Below are positions 1-15,372 of a DNA stretch of 16,874 bases, in pieces. Position 1 is the first letter of the stretch; every line of letters starts with the position of its first letter. The position numbers were made by a program, and so were the translations under genes. The notes under the pieces are model-generated. The model saw nothing but the letters and a program-made list of their open reading frames with translations, was not told where the DNA came from and made no database searches. The DNA is from a virus (taxonomy: Duplodnaviria > Heunggongvirae > Uroviricota > Caudoviricetes): positions 1 through 16,874 of IMG/VR virus record IMGVR_UViG_2740892443_000003. One strand, written 5' to 3'.

Positions 1-714
1 ATGTGGGTCAATAAGTATATTGACGATTGCACTGATGAGGATTTAAACGATCGTGACTTTATTGCATCAGTTGTTGACCGGGCTATTTTTCATTTCGCGA
101 TTAATAGTATATGTAATCCTGGGGATAATAAAGATGCGACTCCCATTGAACGATGTACTTTTGATGTAGAAACTAAGAATGGCCTTCCCTCCACGGTTCA
201 GCTATTTTATGAGGAATCTAAGGATAATGAACCTTTAGCGAATATACATTTTCAAGCAATAGGTTCTGGTTTTTTAACGTTTGTTAATGCCTGCCAGGAA
301 CATGATGACAACAGCTTAAAATTATTTGCTTCGCTGTTAATTTCACTTTCATATTCTAGTGCCTACACAGATTTAGCCGGAGCAGAAAAAGTGAATATTA
401 ATGAATATAATGAGAACTATCTGACAGCTCAGTTTGAAGAATTATCTCAACGTGATATGAAGAAGTACCTGGGAGAGATGAAGCATCTGGCGGACCGGGG
501 GGGGATGAAATTTGATGACTATCTGGATAAAATGTCACTTCTGGTGAATGAAGGAAAGCTCGAACCTGATATTTTAAGCAAAATGCGAGATGCTGCACCG
601 AAATTAATTGACTTTGCTAAGTCGTTTGACCCAAACTCAAAGGAAAAGATTAAAATACTTACAGATACTTCTAATTTAATTTATGATTTATTCGGGGTTA
701 AATCGGCGAAATAA
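1..714 (+). CDS. Hypothetical protein, 237 aa, AT-rich; chromosomal flank upstream of dusA; 5' end may lie outside window
   Basis: ATG at window position 1 to TAA at 712-714. No family recognised. Followed by a hairpin terminator. Position and size fit the gene upstream of dusA in K-12 gene order (yjbM, from memory, unverified). Confidence 0.5.
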   Translation: MWVNKYIDDCTDEDLNDRDFIASVVDRAIFHFAINSICNPGDNKDATPIERCTFDVETKNGLPSTVQLFYEESKDNEPLANIHFQAIGSGFLTFVNACQEHDDNSLKLFASLLISLSYSSAYTDLAGAEKVNINEYNENYLTAQFEELSQRDMKKYLGEMKHLADRGGMKFDDYLDKMSLLVNEGKLEPDILSKMRDAAPKLIDFAKSFDPNSKEKIKILTDTSNLIYDLFGVKSAK

Positions 715-6983: not shown

Positions 6984-7048
6984 AATAAGTCCTCACTATA
7001 TAAAGATATTCAGTGATGAGATAAATAATCGGTTAATTAAGAACGATA

Positions 7049-7411
7049 TTAATGACCTGCTGCGCGGAGTTTTCCGTCAGGTTCACCGGCAAGAGTCAGT
7101 AATTGTCCCTGGTCTTCCTGCAGAATAGTCAGGCGACCACCGCGATTGACATACATCGGCGTTTCGGTGGTGTCTTCTTCGGAAATTTTCCCGCGGTTAG
7201 TCGGGCGAACATATGAGAGTTTGTGTTTGATTTTCACACGGTTCTCATCAAATGGTTCGATTTCCAGGTTGAGTGAGACCTTACCTTTGGTTTTCGTGTT
7301 CATCACACCTGAAGCGACTTCACTGAGAACTGCGCCGATTTTGGTTTCAAATACGCCGCCGTCCAACTCCCCGATAAATGCCTGCACATCAGTACTGCGT
7401 TCGCTAGCCAT
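7049..7411 (-). CDS. yfdP: YfdP-like prophage protein, 120 aa
   Basis: Start placed at the internal ATG (7409-7411), which has a GAGGAG Shine-Dalgarno 7 nt upstream. The 182-aa track ORF extends upstream through a structured noncoding region. Confidence 0.6.
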   Translation of the reverse strand: MASERSTDVQAFIGELDGGVFETKIGAVLSEVASGVMNTKTKGKVSLNLEIEPFDENRVKIKHKLSYVRPTNRGKISEEDTTETPMYVNRGGRLTILQEDQGQLLTLAGEPDGKLRAAGH

Positions 7412-7460
7412 TTTGCTGCTCCTCATCATATCGACCCTGCAAGGTCGGTTGGTTTCTCCA

Positions 7461-7547
7461 CAAAACAGAGAAGAACACCTGCGGTGGCAGCCGCCCGGAT
7501 GGATTGGGTTATGAGCCCGTCGTCCGGTGATGCTCTTCTCTGTTTTG
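7461..7547 (-). repeat. Long inverted repeat in the early-operon leader: 14-bp perfect arms, 59-bp spacer
   Basis: CAAAACAGAGAAGA (7461-7474) is the exact reverse complement of TCTTCTCTGTTTTG (7534-7547). Lies 50-135 bp upstream of the yfdP start. Confidence 0.5.
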
Positions 7548-7594
7548 TAAAAAGAGCGGTACCAGCCGGAAGCAAGTGTACAAACTGGTACCGC
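7548..7594 (-). terminator. Candidate intrinsic terminator or OL-like operator in the leftward leader
   Basis: GCGGTACCAG (7556-7565) and CTGGTACCGC (7585-7594) are exact inverted repeats; on the minus strand they are followed by TCTTTTTA. The arms contain the GGTACC core seen in the cI/cro operators. Confidence 0.4.
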
Positions 7595-8026
7595 CAAAGC
7601 AGTGGCTGTTGTGGTGACCGGTGCTGATCTCCGGCTTGCGGTTATTTCAGACTCTCACTGGCGTTTAATTGCCCCGCCGAACAGCTCTTTTCCGCAATAG
7701 CTGCAATGTCTTTCGCGCATCAGCCTGCGCATTCACCACAACGCTGAGAGCACTTAGCCAGTTACGGCACCACACTTTGTCGCGGTTCCATAAATGCCCT
7801 CATCGTTGCACCCTGGTCTCTTCCCAGGTGTCAAACCGAACCGCCACGCTGGTTAGGCGTCTTATCAGCATCATCATTGACTTGCACATTCCGGCTACCT
7901 GGTTTGTTTGCCCGAGCAAGGAGTGGATTGTCCCCTTTAACGTCCCCAGACCGCTAACGACGCATGTGCCATACGCCGTGTTACAACCAAATTTTGTTTA
8001 ATCTTGCCTGTGACATGTTTCTTTTA

Positions 8027-8059
8027 GATACATTATGTATCTCAAGGGTACATTGTCAA
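8027..8059 (-). promoter_or_regulatory. PL-like leftward promoter with overlapping operator palindrome
   Basis: Minus-strand -35 TTGACA (plus 8054-8059), 16-bp spacer, -10 CATAAT (plus 8032-8037). The perfect palindrome GATACA-tta-TGTATC (8027-8041) overlaps the -10, and GGTACATT lies at the -35. Confidence 0.5.
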
Positions 8060-8061
8060 GT

Positions 8062-8086
8062 ATAAAAAAACCTGCCGAAGCAGGTT
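8062..8086 (-). terminator. Rho-independent terminator of the cI-like gene
   Basis: AACCTGC-cgaa-GCAGGTT hairpin followed on the minus strand by seven T residues, 12 bp after the cI stop. Confidence 0.75.
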
Positions 8087-8097
8087 ATAAATATTGA

Positions 8098-8772
8098 TTA
8101 GGCCTTTATTTTGTATCTTCTTGGTTTTCCTGAGAAAATTACTGTACCAATTATAGAGCAATTACCGTTGATCTTAATGTAAGGTTCAGGCCAGTTTGGG
8201 TTTAATGCTTTGAGGTAACGCTGTGTTCCATCTTCTATCAACCGCTTAAAGGTGGTTTCGCCTGTATCGTGCATCAATGCAATAACGTCGTCACCGTGGC
8301 AGGCAGGGACTTCAGGATCTACAAAAATCATGTCTCCCGGGCGGTACTCATCAATCATTGAATCACCAATCACCCGCAAGATATAAGTCATTTCGCCACA
8401 GGGTACAGGGCAGGGATAAGTTTCTGCTGTGCTCAAATCAACCTCAGAATAGCCAACTTCTTTCCATGCTCCGGCCTGTACCCATGATATGACAGGGACT
8501 AACGTTATTTGTTTGTTAGTGATTGAAACGTCAGGTTTTTTTGTGATGTTCGTTGTCTGGTGTTCTTGATCAAGCCATCCGACAGGCAGGTCGAAACATT
8601 TTTCGATGTGCCGTGCCATGCTGTCACCGATATTTTTAGTTGCACCATCTCCCATAAACCTGCTGGTCTGGGTTGGCTCGCGATCAATCATGGTGGCAAA
8701 GGAAGAATTCCCGCCAACACCATCTCTCAGTTTTCTGGCGTTAGACCGCCGGATGTCATGGACTGTTTTCAT
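8098..8772 (-). CDS. Lambda-cI/LexA-type autocleavable repressor (S24 peptidase C-terminal domain), 224 aa
   Basis: VQAG cleavage-site motif, GDSM serine nucleophile, TFKRL lysine. C-terminus aligns by eye to lambda cI ([22 protein letters not shown] versus TFKRLIEDGTQRYLKALNPNWP). N-terminal HTH region. Confidence 0.9.
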   Translation of the reverse strand: MKTVHDIRRSNARKLRDGVGGNSSFATMIDREPTQTSRFMGDGATKNIGDSMARHIEKCFDLPVGWLDQEHQTTNITKKPDVSITNKQITLVPVISWVQAGAWKEVGYSEVDLSTAETYPCPVPCGEMTYILRVIGDSMIDEYRPGDMIFVDPEVPACHGDDVIALMHDTGETTFKRLIEDGTQRYLKALNPNWPEPYIKINGNCSIIGTVIFSGKPRRYKIKA

Positions 8773-8788
8773 AAAGAAATTAAAACCT

Positions 8789-8807
8789 TTGTACCGATAA
8801 GGTACAA
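8789..8807. promoter_or_regulatory. Operator palindrome TTGTACC-gataa-GGTACAA in the cI/cro intergenic region
   Basis: Perfect 7-5-7 inverted repeat lying over the predicted -35 regions of the divergent promoters. Confidence 0.6.
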
Positions 8808-8812
8808 GTATC

Positions 8813-8840
8813 TTGAAGGTTCATCTCAATCATGTAATAT
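8813..8840 (+). promoter_or_regulatory. PR-like promoter for the cro/baseplate operon
   Basis: -35 TTGAAG (8813-8818), 16-bp spacer, -10 TAATAT (8835-8840). Confidence 0.45.
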
Positions 8841-8859
8841 GTATACCGGAGGTACATAT
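8837..8859. promoter_or_regulatory. Second operator-like palindrome ATATGTA-N9-TACATAT overlapping the PR -10 and transcription start
   Basis: Exact inverted half-sites at 8837-8843 and 8853-8859. Shares the TGTA / GGTACA core with the 8789 and 8027 sites. Confidence 0.45.
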
Positions 8860-8862
8860 TGT

Positions 8863-9231
8863 ATGAAAGCGTATTGGGACTCTTTAACCAAAGAACAGCA
8901 GGGTGAGTTGGCCGGAAAAGTTGGCTCAACACCAGGCTACTTACGGCTGGTTTTCAATGGTTATAAAAAAGCCAGTTTTGTGCTGGCTAAAAAACTTGAG
9001 CAATGCACGTCAGGTGCAATTACGAAATCTGACTTAAGACCGGATATCAACACGCGCCTTGAACAGTCTGCACGGATCATTCAGCGCACGCCGGATGAGG
9101 TTTTACCCGCGCTGGTGCTGGCGGCGACCTGGTTTGATAACGCGGCGCGTGACGCGGACATTATCCGGCGTAATGCCATTACGCATCCCGGCTTTGTGCC
9201 GGTGATCCCTCTGAAGGTGCCAGTGCAATGA
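8863..9231 (+). CDS. Cro/YdaS-like HTH regulator with a C-terminal extension, 122 aa
   Basis: GGAGG Shine-Dalgarno then ATG at 8863. GSTPGYLRLVFNG...SGAITKSDLRPDI fits the YdaS/Cro HTH pattern. The last ~45 codons are GC-rich like the structural genes. The stop overlaps the next start (ATGA at 9228-9231). Confidence 0.6.
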   Translation: MKAYWDSLTKEQQGELAGKVGSTPGYLRLVFNGYKKASFVLAKKLEQCTSGAITKSDLRPDINTRLEQSARIIQRTPDEVLPALVLAATWFDNAARDADIIRRNAITHPGFVPVIPLKVPVQ

Positions 9232-10307
9232 ACGACAATGTCACGCTACGGGTAAATGGCCGGGAGTGGAATGGCTGGACATCGGTGCGCATCGGTGCCG
9301 GTATTGAACGGCTGGCGCGGGATTTCAGTGTGGAGATCACTCGCCAATGGCCGGGAGATGAGGGTATCACCACGCTTCAGCCGCGCATTAAAAACGGTTC
9401 AAAAGTGGAAGTGCTAATTGGTGATGAGCTGGTGATCACCGGCTGGGTGGAGGCGACTCCCGTTCGTTACGATGCCCGTTCGGTCAGCACCGGTATTGCC
9501 GGACGTAGTCTGACGGCTGACCTGATTGACTGTGCAGCCGAACCGACACAGTTTAACGGACGCTCGCTGGTGCAGATTGCGCAGGCGCTTGCTGCACCTT
9601 TCGGCATTGAGGTGGTGAACAGCGGTGCGCCGTCGGGTGTTATTCCTGATGTTCAGCCTGATCACGGTGAAACGGTGATTGAGGTAATCAACAAAATACT
9701 CGGTCAGCAGCAGGCGCTGGCTTACGACGACCCGCACGGCAGGCTGGTGATTGGCGGTATTGGCTCAACGCGGGCACATACCGCGCTGGTACTTGGGGAA
9801 AACATCCTTTCCTGCGATACGGAGAAGAGTATCCGGGAGCGGTTTTCTGTTTACCAGGTGGCGGGGCAGCGTGCCGGAAACGACGATGATTTCGGTGAGG
9901 CCACCACAACTGCGCTGCGGGCCCGCACAGAGGACGCATTTATTGCCCGTTACCGTCCGATGTATATCAGGCAGACAGGGCAGGCCACGGGGGCAGGCTG
10001 TATTGCGCGTGCTGACTTTGAAGCCCGACAACGGGCGGCGCGGACGGATGAAACCACTTATGTGGTGCAGGGCTGGCGACAGGGTAACGGTACGCTGTGG
10101 CAGCCCAACCAGCGGGTGATTGTCTTCGATCCGGTCTGTGGTTTCGACAATACCGAACTGCTTGTTTCGGAAGTCACGTTTACTCAGGACCAGAACGGCA
10201 CCCTGACGGAAATCCGTGTCGGCCCGCCTGATGCTTATCTGCCTGAACCCGAAGATCCCGGCGCGCGGAAAAAGAAAAAAGCCAGAGTACAGGAGGACCC
10301 GTTCTGA
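9228..10307 (+). CDS. Baseplate hub protein (Mu gp44 / P2 gpD-like), 359 aa
   Basis: Size and position immediately upstream of a gpV-like gene in conserved Mu/P2 baseplate order; family membership not confirmed by motif. High GC. Translationally coupled on both sides. Confidence 0.6.
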   Translation: MNDNVTLRVNGREWNGWTSVRIGAGIERLARDFSVEITRQWPGDEGITTLQPRIKNGSKVEVLIGDELVITGWVEATPVRYDARSVSTGIAGRSLTADLIDCAAEPTQFNGRSLVQIAQALAAPFGIEVVNSGAPSGVIPDVQPDHGETVIEVINKILGQQQALAYDDPHGRLVIGGIGSTRAHTALVLGENILSCDTEKSIRERFSVYQVAGQRAGNDDDFGEATTTALRARTEDAFIARYRPMYIRQTGQATGAGCIARADFEARQRAARTDETTYVVQGWRQGNGTLWQPNQRVIVFDPVCGFDNTELLVSEVTFTQDQNGTLTEIRVGPPDAYLPEPEDPGARKKKKARVQEDPF

Positions 10308-13553: not shown

Positions 13554-13994
13554 ATGCAGAAATATATTTTCAGTGCCGATAAAAATGCGTTTTTCCCTGT
13601 GGAGCTTAAAATCGCTTATCAGGAATCCGGCGAATGGCCCGATGATGGAATCGAAATTGACGACACTGTTGCCGCCGAATTTATGAAGGAAGCACCAGAA
13701 GGAAAATACAGAGGTGTCATCGACGGAATGCCAGCATGGATTGATATTCCACCGCCAACTCATGAGGAACAAATTGCCGCAGCCGAACTGGAAAAGCAGC
13801 AATTGATTAATCAGGTCAACGAATACATAAACAGTAAGCAATGGCCTGGTAAAGCGGCGATTGGTCGCCTGAAAGGTGAGAAACTGGCGCAATATAATTT
13901 GTGGCTGGATTATCTGGACGCACTGGAGCTGGTCGATACTTCCGGTGCGCCAGATATTGAATGGCCTACGCCTCCGGCAGTTCAGGCCAGATGA
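13554..13994 (+). CDS. Tail fibre assembly chaperone (Tfa, Mu U / lambda Tfa-like), 146 aa
   Basis: MQKYIFSADKNAFFP... with a C-terminal ...PDIEWPTPP motif typical of Tfa proteins. Confidence 0.8.
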   Translation: MQKYIFSADKNAFFPVELKIAYQESGEWPDDGIEIDDTVAAEFMKEAPEGKYRGVIDGMPAWIDIPPPTHEEQIAAAELEKQQLINQVNEYINSKQWPGKAAIGRLKGEKLAQYNLWLDYLDALELVDTSGAPDIEWPTPPAVQAR

Positions 13995-15372
13995 CATCCG
14001 GCGCGGTGCTGGTATCTGTTGCCGCCACCGCGTCAATGTAATCCAGCACAGCGTTAAGCCGGGTTGTTTCTGCCTGCGTCAGTTTACGTCCGGCCTGCAA
14101 TTTCAGTTGAATCAGACTGATGGAAGCCATAGCAGCATCAATCAGCGACTGGCGCTGTGCTTCTGCCGCGTCTACTGCGGCGCTATGTTGTGCCTCGGTA
14201 TCCGTCACCCATTTCTCACCATCCCATTTATCGTATGGCGTTAACGGGGCGATAGTGGTTGTATTATCAGGGTAATCACCCGGAGCTGTGATTTCTTTTG
14301 ATTCCCCTGTTTCGGTGCTAAAAACGATTTCACCGCGATGGTCTGGCATATATTCCCATGATTTTAAATCTGCTGAACGGCAGATAACCTGGGCTACTTC
14401 CTCAATACTAAAACCAGCCTCAAATAAGCGACTTGCCCCTTCTCTACGCAAATCATGGTATCGCAGATCCTTAATACCTAATTTGCTTCTTACCCTCTGA
14501 AATCCCGCAGTAACAGAAGTGCTGTTATATGGAAAAATGAATTCCGATTTTTGGGGCTGTCGTTGGACGATATCCCAGGCTTCCCCAAGCAAGGCTACTT
14601 TCATGTGGTTGCCTTCCTTTTTGCGTGGATCTTTCCTGTCTCTTACGAGTATAGATTTTTGTTCCTGGTCGAGATCTTCCCATCGTAACCGGCATACTTC
14701 TCCGATTCGCATACAGGACCACACAGAAAATTTGAGGATATCAACGAACGGAATTTTTGAGCATTTATGAGTAGATCGTTGTTGAAGGCCTTCAATGAGC
14801 ATGTCCAGTTCATCAGATGCTGGTCTACGATTACGACGGTTTGATTTACCAATTAAACCAAGTTTAAGTAGATATGGACGAGCGGCTTTTGCTGGGTTTG
14901 ATGTGTAATTAATTCCATATACAGGTTTGGCAGCATCCAGAACACTGCCAAGATAACTAACATCGTGGCTAACTGTAGCTGGACCTGCACCAGCGTTGTT
15001 TCTTAGCCTGCAATGTTCAATTACGTCATTTTCTGTCAGTTCAGATAGTTTGATCGCGGAGATGTCACTATCCATAAGCAGTTCCAGCACATATCTTTTA
15101 GTACGGCCTGCTTTACCTCCGGCATTTGGGTCATTTAAATATTTGTGTAGTAAGTCACGGACTGTAAGTCCGTCAACTGCATTTGATGATGGAATGCCAT
15201 ATAGATCTAATTCCATCACTTTCTGTGTGCCCCATGTTTTGGCATGAGCATGTTTAGGGAATGTTTTGCTTTCCCTGTAAGTGATAACACCTTTTTCTTT
15301 GATAATCACATTACAGCGATAGCGTGGTGTGCCATCGGATTTTAGTCGTTTCTCTATGTTATAGTACGCCAT
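13966..15372 (-). CDS. int: dusA-associated tyrosine integrase with an in-frame C-terminal Tfa-like extension, 468-aa ORF
   Basis: Catalytic motifs by eye: R in IGEVCRLRWEDLD, H-x-x-R in YHDLRREG, Tyr in SWEY. After ...YMPDHRGE the frame continues about 110 codons into Tfa-like sequence (...KWDGEKWVTDTEAQ...APDVIWPELPEA). Its 3' end overlaps tfa convergently by 29 bp. Confidence 0.8.
   Translation of the reverse strand: MAYYNIEKRLKSDGTPRYRCNVIIKEKGVITYRESKTFPKHAHAKTWGTQKVMELDLYGIPSSNAVDGLTVRDLLHKYLNDPNAGGKAGRTKRYVLELLMDSDISAIKLSELTENDVIEHCRLRNNAGAGPATVSHDVSYLGSVLDAAKPVYGINYTSNPAKAARPYLLKLGLIGKSNRRNRRPASDELDMLIEGLQQRSTHKCSKIPFVDILKFSVWSCMRIGEVCRLRWEDLDQEQKSILVRDRKDPRKKEGNHMKVALLGEAWDIVQRQPQKSEFIFPYNSTSVTAGFQRVRSKLGIKDLRYHDLRREGASRLFEAGFSIEEVAQVICRSADLKSWEYMPDHRGEIVFSTETGESKEITAPGDYPDNTTTIAPLTPYDKWDGEKWVTDTEAQHSAAVDAAEAQRQSLIDAAMASISLIQLKLQAGRKLTQAETTRLNAVLDYIDAVAATDTSTAPDVIWPELPEA

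Follow-up and report, generated by a model that had tools for sequence, protein, structure and literature searches.

The 16,874-bp stretch of viral DNA analysed here (hereafter the window) holds a decayed SfV/e14-like prophage, and our subject is its immunity region, in which a cI-like repressor gene and a cro-like gene are divergently arranged. An initial annotation had proposed that palindromes in this region belong to a shared family of operators, and the stretch at 7000-9600 was read for the sequences it quoted. As set out below, the palindromes that lie on the early promoters are very probably the repressor operators of a lambdoid immunity switch of the e14/SfV type. The features of the region are as follows, the promoters and operators being predictions from the DNA sequence.

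8098-8772, minus strand: cI-like repressor gene (ymfK/cohE type, 224 aa), with a predicted N-terminal DNA-binding domain and C-terminal S24 self-cleaving protease

8863-9231, plus strand: cro-like gene (ymfT/croE), encoding a YdaS-type helix-turn-helix protein with weak YdaS_toxin and HTH_3 matches

8790-8806, unstranded: putative cI-proximal strong operator (OR3-like), TGTACC-gataa-GGTACA, an exact site with a matrix score of 23.7

8840-8856, unstranded: putative cro-proximal strong operator (OR1-like), TGTATA-ccgga-GGTACA, an exact site with a matrix score of 22.3

8807-8823, unstranded: possible weak middle operator (OR2-like, tentative), AGTATC-ttgaa-GGTTCA, directly adjoining the cI-proximal site and lying over the PR -35 element

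8036-8052, unstranded: OL1, putative strong operator, TGTATC-tcaag-GGTACA, an exact TGTA-N9-TACA site that fills the 16-bp spacer of PL

8016-8032, unstranded: OL2, putative weaker operator, TGTTTC-tttta-GATACA, 20 bp from OL1 centre to centre

8813-8840, plus strand: putative PR-like promoter for cro, with -35 TTGAAG (8813-8818), a 16-bp spacer and -10 TAATAT (8835-8840)

8779-8807, minus strand: putative PRM-like promoter for the repressor, with -35 TTGTAC (8807-8802), a 17-bp spacer and -10 TTTAAT (8784-8779)

8032-8059, minus strand: predicted PL-like leftward promoter, with -35 TTGACA (8059-8054), a 16-bp spacer and -10 CATAAT (8037-8032)

8069-8086, minus strand: intrinsic terminator after the repressor gene, from a terminator scan

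The palindromes quoted in the initial annotation are all present where it had placed them. TTGTACC-gataa-GGTACAA is found at 8789-8807, ATATGTA-N9-TACATAT at 8837-8859, GATACA-tta-TGTATC at 8027-8041 and GGTACATT at 8047-8054, with the first two between cI and cro and the others overlapping PL. In the 16,874 bp there are exactly three matches to TGTA-N9-TACA (8036-8052, 8790-8806 and 8840-8856), against an expectation of 0.12, and a count of three was reached in none of 200 dinucleotide-preserving shuffles of the window. All three exact sites are at promoter positions within the region that had been singled out. They share one 17-bp frame, with the sequences listed above for OL1 and the cI-proximal and cro-proximal operators, and their consensus, TGTAYC-N5-GRTACA, is two-fold symmetric with half-site centres 11 bp apart, or about one helical turn. 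A weight matrix built from the sites of relatives alone, with the window left out, returns the three strong sites as its three top matches in the window (22-26 bits). In the complete 37-kb SfV genome, exact sites are found only at the three homologous places, together with a one-mismatch OL2 beside OL1.

The initial annotation had also held that the spacing differs between sites, and had read this as a possible sign of graded affinity or of two binding proteins. That part of the proposal has to be given up, because the strong sites all have a single spacing. Graded affinity may come from the weak accessory sites at 8016-8032 and 8807-8823 rather than from spacing.

The conservation of the palindromes in related immunity regions had been named beforehand as a check on the operator family, and the palindromes are indeed conserved. 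One genome per species was scanned with the repressor, which gave 19 related loci, 17 of them distinct, from about 16 genera (Escherichia, Pseudocitrobacter, Klebsiella, Leclercia, Atlantibacter, Phytobacter, Enterobacter, Pantoea, Trabulsiella, Kluyvera, Limnobaculum, Rahnella, Edwardsiella, Entomohabitans and others), with repressors 73-100% identical. Every related immunity region examined has the same 17-mer at the same three positions, namely at -84/-85 and at -34/-35 from the repressor start and just past the repressor terminator. Nowhere else in the approximately 5.6 kb of these loci does TGTA-N9-TACA occur, save for a second downstream site 20 bp on in two of them. The cI-proximal operator is exact in 16 of the 17 distinct relatives and has one mismatch in the remaining locus (L021); the cro-proximal operator is in place in all relatives and always reads TGTACCTCC on the repressor strand; and OL1 is at the homologous place in 17 of 17. 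A further scan of IMG/VR with an alignment of the N-terminal domain gave 80 loci, all so close to the query (99-100% identity) that they were uninformative for footprinting.

The alignments also give the pattern of conservation within each site. Operator half-sites are 94-99% conserved, compared with about 50% for the inner 5 bp at OL1 (97% versus 51%) and at the cI-proximal operator (99% versus 49%), and 64% for the leader to the left of PL. The spacer of the cro-proximal operator is 91% conserved, because the complement of the cro Shine-Dalgarno sequence GGAGG lies within it.

A second line of evidence comes from the repressor protein. Its Peptidase_S24 domain spans residues 93-212 (E 1.5e-26), and the translation contains the S24 motifs Ala100-Gly101, GDS138M (Ser138) and FK176RL (Lys176). 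The protein is 100% identical to SfV cI, and the E. coli annotation is 'ymfK: LexA family protein'. Residues 1-88 match no Pfam family, even at E <= 10, and residues 1-75 resemble the N-terminal domain of a phage repressor of solved structure (PDB 5d50, E 7e-4). A structure model of the N-terminal domain predicted from the single sequence was of poor quality (pLDDT 62.7). When phage genomes were searched by tblastn, two temperate phages of Pseudomonas aeruginosa, vB_Pae_CF60a and zjk6, were found to encode repressors that match only over residues 1-71, at 58% identity, and that have an identical REPTQxSR stretch in common with the N-terminal domain of the window's repressor. CF60a has a YdaS-like gene, its product 32% identical to Cro, whose ribosome-binding site is covered by TGTACC-tcctg-GGTACA; it also has TGTACA-tttct-GGTACA beside the repressor start, and a degenerate site, TGTACC-gtcaa-GGTTCT, that abuts the repressor-proximal site; zjk6 has the same three sites. 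No such site was found with repressors that have 28-45% identical N-terminal domains and other recognition sequences (Klebsiella phage KO-TP1, mEp506, Stx1-type phages, Ralstonia phage Hennie, Pseudoalteromonas phage PY3 and prophages of Comamonas, Variovorax and Giesbergeria). Judged from these sequence comparisons, the motif therefore follows one repressor specificity class, or DNA-binding domain, across gamma-proteobacterial phages.

The two strong operators between cI and cro are 50 bp apart. The first base of the cro-proximal operator is the last one of the PR -10 element, and the operator covers the predicted start site near 8847 and the cro Shine-Dalgarno sequence (8848-8852). The cI-proximal operator overlaps the -35 element and spacer of the putative PRM and lies upstream of the PR -35 element. 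For PR, the TTG of the -35 element and positions 2 and 6 of the -10 element are retained in all relatives, with the two hexamers 81% and 87% conserved. For PRM, a conserved AAT is fixed 6 nt before the cI ATG, the -10 element is 89% conserved, and the alignment of relatives has no conserved Shine-Dalgarno sequence before that ATG. The conserved AAT and the lack of a conserved Shine-Dalgarno sequence together suggest a PRM that starts at the A of the cI ATG (8772) and gives a leaderless cI mRNA, as in lambda. Relative to this start, the centre of the tentative middle site would be near -43.

It is less clear what to make of 8807-8823 itself. Its GGTTCA is invariant in 18 sequences, it is the best remaining matrix match in 12 of the 17 relatives, with scores of 9.6-13.6, and its counterpart in the Pseudomonas phages is the degenerate TGTACC-gtcaa-GGTTCT. 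As a firm third OR operator, however, it was rejected and is kept as tentative, because only GGTTCA is invariant and the score in the window is not significant. A separate observation is that GGTTCAT (8818-8824), which lies in the PR spacer just past the -35 element, is invariant in all 18 sequences from about 16 genera, and is only partly accounted for as the outer half of a weak operator.

The leftward promoter is located just past the cI terminator. In a promoter consensus scan it has 11 of 12 consensus positions, and its -35 and -10 hexamers are invariant in the 18 aligned sequences. OL1 has the highest matrix score in the window (25.8). OL2, which spans the last base of the PL -10 element and the predicted leftward start site near 8025, ranks fourth with 15.4 bits, where 0.01 such matches are expected per shuffled window. 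It is an exact site in two relatives (L016 and L020) and scores 11-18 in 8 of 17, and its promoter-proximal half is 98% conserved as compared with 69% for the distal half. The adjoining of OL2 and OL1 explains GATACA-tta-TGTATC, which the initial annotation had taken as a site of its own: its outer parts are the right half of OL2 (8016-8032) and the left half of OL1 (8036-8052), and the three bases between them belong to the -10 hexamer.

Four other explanations of the palindromes can be considered. The one that stays closest to the initial annotation is that there are two proteins and two site classes, with the cI-like and Cro-like regulators each using palindromes of a different spacing. GATACA-tta-TGTATC does exist at 8027-8041, the block GGTACATTATGTA is invariant in relatives, and the strong sites do not entirely account for the conserved GGTTCAT at 8818-8824. 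Nevertheless, the N3 palindrome occurs at PL only and has no OR counterpart, it is fully explained by 17-mers 20 bp apart with the -10 CATAAT inside, and all strong sites have a single spacing. In characterised lambdoid switches, moreover, Cro and CI use the same operators, which also counts against two classes of site. We consider this explanation improbable. Still less probable is that the palindromes are RNA hairpins, i.e., terminators or attenuators, rather than protein-binding sites. A terminator scan does list 8807-8789 on the minus strand, with a 7-bp stem followed by a T-rich tail. However, the stems are short and AT-rich, the same sequence is found at three unrelated positions on both transcription units, and the arms are invariant and never covary across 18 sequences. 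The region provides its own contrast to this, in that the genuine hairpins at 8069-8086 and 7556-7594 change sequence yet keep pairing; in the cI terminator, for example, the stem sequence differs among relatives with pairing retained. Because the operator arms never covary while the nearby terminator does, their conservation points to recognition by protein and not to RNA structure.

A host factor might also bind the sites. For example, if they were LexA SOS boxes, the prophage promoters would be under direct SOS control, which would agree with the SOS and oxidative-stress response seen in K-12 (PMC10602906) and with a motif that is superficially TGT-rich. We give this very little credence, since the LexA box is CTGT-N8-ACAG, of 16 bp, whereas the sites here are TGTAC-N7-GTACA, of 17 bp, and are without the CTG/CAG ends. 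The motif also follows the N-terminal domain of the phage repressor into Pseudomonas, and the e14 division inhibitor is reportedly not controlled by LexA (bioRxiv 10.1101/2020.11.19.390815). Finally, short palindromes are common in AT-rich promoters and could have arisen by chance in an AT-rich intergenic region; with three sites against 0.12 expected, none of 200 shuffles reaching that number, and conservation in about 16 genera as well as in Pseudomonas phages, a chance origin is next to inconceivable. The hairpin, LexA and chance explanations are rejected on this evidence.

There are nonetheless several points that weigh against the palindromes being the operators of this repressor. Homologues of the repressor and of Cro always co-occur with the motif, such that the sequence cannot tell which of them binds it, or whether both do. 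In the searchable literature we found no binding, footprint, reporter or other operator experiment for this repressor. The putative PR and PRM each have 8 of 12 consensus positions, which is below the threshold of the consensus scan, and part of the half-site conservation coincides with promoter elements and the ribosome-binding site, which may contribute to it. The weak sites are individually uncompelling: 8807-8823 scores only 6.5 in the window, where 0.36 such matches are expected by chance, and OL2 is absent in 5 or more relatives. The analysis shows the sites themselves, their excess over chance, how their positions and sequences are conserved, and that they occur together with one type of repressor N-terminal domain; operator occupancy, promoter start points, a cI mRNA with no leader, what the weak sites do and repressor cleavage are all things that we infer from the sequence.

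On the reading that the palindromes are repressor operators, a mechanism can be proposed. A dimer of the cI-like protein (YmfK/CohE) would bind TGTAYC-N5-GRTACA through its N-terminal helix-turn-helix domain, and the Cro-like protein (YmfT/CroE) would very probably bind the same motif, by analogy with lambda. At PL, the strong OL1 would fill the spacer between the -35 and -10 elements, with the weaker OL2, 20 bp off, over the start site. Occupancy of 8840-8856 would cover the end of the PR -10 element, the start site and the cro ribosome-binding site, and so turn off rightward transcription. Occupancy of 8790-8806, on the -35 element and spacer of the putative PRM, would limit cI expression, through either autoregulation by the repressor or Cro. 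The degenerate site at 8807-8823, between the strong sites, might be an accessory operator that is filled cooperatively. Upon DNA damage, RecA would stimulate self-cleavage of the repressor at Ala100-Gly101 by its S24 domain (Ser138 and Lys176), and both early promoters would be freed. Cleavage is proposed because the S24 motifs are present in the sequence and self-cleavage is the established behaviour of S24 repressors. In E. coli K-12, the e14 element responds to SOS and oxidative stress (the 'YmfT iModulon'; PMC10602906), and ymfK has been described as an SOS-sensitive CI-like repressor (PMC8249747; bioRxiv 10.1101/2020.11.19.390815). The proposed cleavage would fit this response of the e14 genes (PMC10602906; bioRxiv 10.1101/2020.11.19.390815).

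It is possible, though we would not call it probable, that the region is a differently wired, compact bistable switch, in which the weak site activates and the abutting strong site represses. The elements of such a switch would be: (i) only two high-affinity OR operators, at a fixed distance of 50 bp; (ii) a PRM -35 element inside an operator; and (iii) a degenerate site that abuts the cI-proximal operator at about -43 from the leaderless cI start, in a layout that extends from phages of Enterobacteriaceae to those of Pseudomonas. An implication, if this were true, is that the switch logic would be unlike that of lambda, and that the repressors would form a new specificity class in which REPTQxSR recognises TGTACC.

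The initial annotation had included one further palindrome in the operator family, located in the leftward leader, and here the evidence leads elsewhere. The sequence GCGGTACCAG-N19-CTGGTACCGC at 7556-7594 is a perfect 10-bp inverted repeat and belongs to the following feature.

7549-7594, minus strand: predicted intrinsic terminator (the leader palindrome), with arms at 7556-7565 and 7585-7594 and a UCUUUUU run at 7555-7549

In the leftward transcript this hairpin has a 10-bp GC-rich stem directly followed by UCUUUUU, and folding of the leader has a z-score of -6.1. There is no TGTA-N9-TACA in it, and it is outside the 15 best matrix matches. Among relatives with the yfdP module the stem sequence varies, with pairing and the T-run retained (L008 and L010). 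The stems of E. coli and Pseudocitrobacter keep GCGGTACCAG; in Klebsiella spallanzanii GGCGGTTATCCA is paired with TGGATAACCGCC, and in Atlantibacter GGCGGCGTC with GACGCCGC, each followed by a T-run. The case for an operator had been its GGTACC, which is not conserved where the stems still pair, and that assignment was rejected. A stem that changes while pairing and the T-run are kept indicates that the palindrome is, on comparative grounds, an intrinsic (Rho-independent) terminator, and that the GGTACC is incidental. An Rfam scan of 7300-9000 (E <= 1) gave nothing on the operators or the leader; the only match was a sub-threshold one to STnc50 over the cI terminator (22 bits versus a gathering score of 55).

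Other properties of the leftward leader were noted along with the terminator. The minus-strand leader at 7412-7600, just upstream of yfdP, is strongly structured as a whole (the z-score of -6.1 given above), and the terminator hairpin in it is followed by a stem (7459-7549) of some 26 bp, which shows compensatory changes between genera and has a loop insertion that varies. The structured leader travels with yfdP in other immunity types (mEp460, SfII, ST64B and Stx2a phages); in these lambdoid phages, which have no N, it may serve for cleavage by RNase III or as a regulated leader. At the other end of the leader, right after PL, most relatives (L004, L007, L009-L012, L014 and L017), K-12 e14 and SfV have a conserved 5' segment that consists of ACAGGCAGGACGCCCACGAAGTAGCCGCC and a covarying hairpin. 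At 7600-8015 the window is without the ACAGGCAGGACGCCCACGAAGTAGCCGCC segment (no match with <=3 mismatches) and diverges about 35 nt after PL, which, from the sequence, is a mosaic boundary within the leader.

With regard to the rest of the prophage, the early-left genes on the minus strand (exonuclease, DUF551, Ead/Ea22, yfdR, yfdQ and yfdP) are followed by the immunity region, and Mu-like baseplate and tail-fibre genes are found to the right of the cro fusion. In the cro-like open reading frame, homology to E. coli ymfT stops at about 9048, and from about 9041 onward there is a match to a 'DNA circularization protein / baseplate assembly protein'; an intact cro with early-right genes (ymfL and replication) behind it is absent. 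The gene is truncated at about codon 62, beyond which its reading frame runs on through the final 60 or so codons of a Mu-N-like 'DNA circularization' tail gene. Relative to SfV, about 23 kb are lost at this fusion (replication, Q, lysis, head and sheath). Of 5,426 complete E. coli genomes, not one has the junction (about 9041-9231). Because ymfT homology stops and the frame runs into the tail gene, the window is, to judge from its sequence, a deletion derivative of the e14/SfV immunity type. Farther to the right, a 468-aa open reading frame at 13966-15372 on the minus strand combines a Phage_integrase domain with one for tail-fibre assembly (Caudo_TAP), and is adjoined by a second, oppositely oriented tail-fibre-assembly gene (13554-13994); this has the look of a tail-fibre region that was rearranged or can invert. 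The left edge of the window (1-714), which is not part of the early-left operon, encodes a complete DUF2713 protein, which may be a flanking host gene or a cargo gene.

The operator set is real, and it is an ordinary lambdoid one that is essentially known already. The immunity region is that of a prophage type which is common and was sequenced long ago (E. coli e14, Shigella SfV, cdt-I and Stx2c phages); its OR operator stretch was annotated as putative as early as 2002. What is added here is the precise consensus TGTAYC-N5-GRTACA, the unannotated PL operators, and the link of the motif to one repressor domain across genera and into Pseudomonas. The sites provide a ready list for the study of regulation by YmfK and YmfT in E. 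coli K-12, e.g., of the 'YmfT iModulon' and of YmfM, a division inhibitor that is SOS-inducible, and the motif could help to predict the immunity groups of SfV-like and Stx2c prophages.

Several known systems are close to this region, which is 96-99% identical to K-12 e14 and SfV. Over 7400-9048, the E. coli chromosomes that match best have 99.2-99.4% identity to the window, and their genes there are annotated as ymfK, ymfT (YdaS family helix-turn-helix) and yfdP. For the same DNA, identity is about 95% with phage cdtI, 96% with SfV over the part that aligns, and about 94.5% with phage Ayreon and with a set of Stx2c phages. In the SfV record (GenBank U82619.2), the 'putative operator region' at 26377-26445 aligns with 8789-8857 of the window; it starts with the first base of one palindrome and stops a single base beyond the second. 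SfV has an identical cI, and its intergenic DNA differs from that of the window at only about 3 positions. The PL operators are present in SfV as well, though the record does not annotate them. The two differ in that SfV is an intact phage with an extra gene, orf33, in its leftward leader, whereas the window has the cro gene fused to a tail gene. Around ymfK and ymfT, the cryptic prophage e14 of K-12 has the same operators, promoter and terminator, with OR and PL stretches that are almost identical; it differs in its intact ymfT, which is followed by ymfL and ymfM, and in having ymfJ/ymfI in place of yfdP/yfdQ in the leftward operon.

The Pseudomonas phages CF60a and zjk6 have the same layout, with one site over the ribosome-binding site of the divergent gene and a degenerate and a strong site beside the repressor start. 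The distance between their adjacent sites is 16 bp, compared with 17 bp here, and beyond the N-terminal domain their repressors have no tblastn match, though the C-terminal part does have a recognisable S24-like motif. The 1.2-1.5 kb examined downstream of the repressor contained no copy of the operator motif. The Rep protein of Salmonella phage SPC32H is inactivated by an antirepressor and is not known to have an S24 protease domain. Its N-terminal DNA-binding domain is the nearest solved relative (PDB 5d50) of residues 1-75 of the window's repressor, at low similarity; beyond those residues, which alone were queried, no similarity was found. The LexA SOS box resembles the operators in being a palindrome for an S24-family repressor with an SOS-linked response, and differs from them in length, spacing and core bases; the sites do not have the form CTGT-N8-ACAG.

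Finally, we note how the region compares with lambda. In common with it are the divergent cI and cro genes, 17-bp symmetric operators over PR, PRM and PL, an S24 repressor and possibly a leaderless cI mRNA. The differences are that the operator sequence is another one, that the N-terminal domain of the repressor has no match to any Pfam helix-turn-helix model, and that OR consists of two strong sites 50 bp apart with one abutting weak site (tentative), where lambda has three sites 23-24 bp apart. A lambdoid switch would have three operators at OL as well as at OR, spaced so as to allow cooperative binding in pairs; OL here has one strong site and one weak, lineage-variable site 20 bp away. In addition, N, cII and cIII are not reported for this phage group (PMC3851460). 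Several features of a lambdoid switch are present in the window: divergent genes, repeated symmetric putative operators over PR/PRM and a separate PL, and the predicted domain layout of the repressor.

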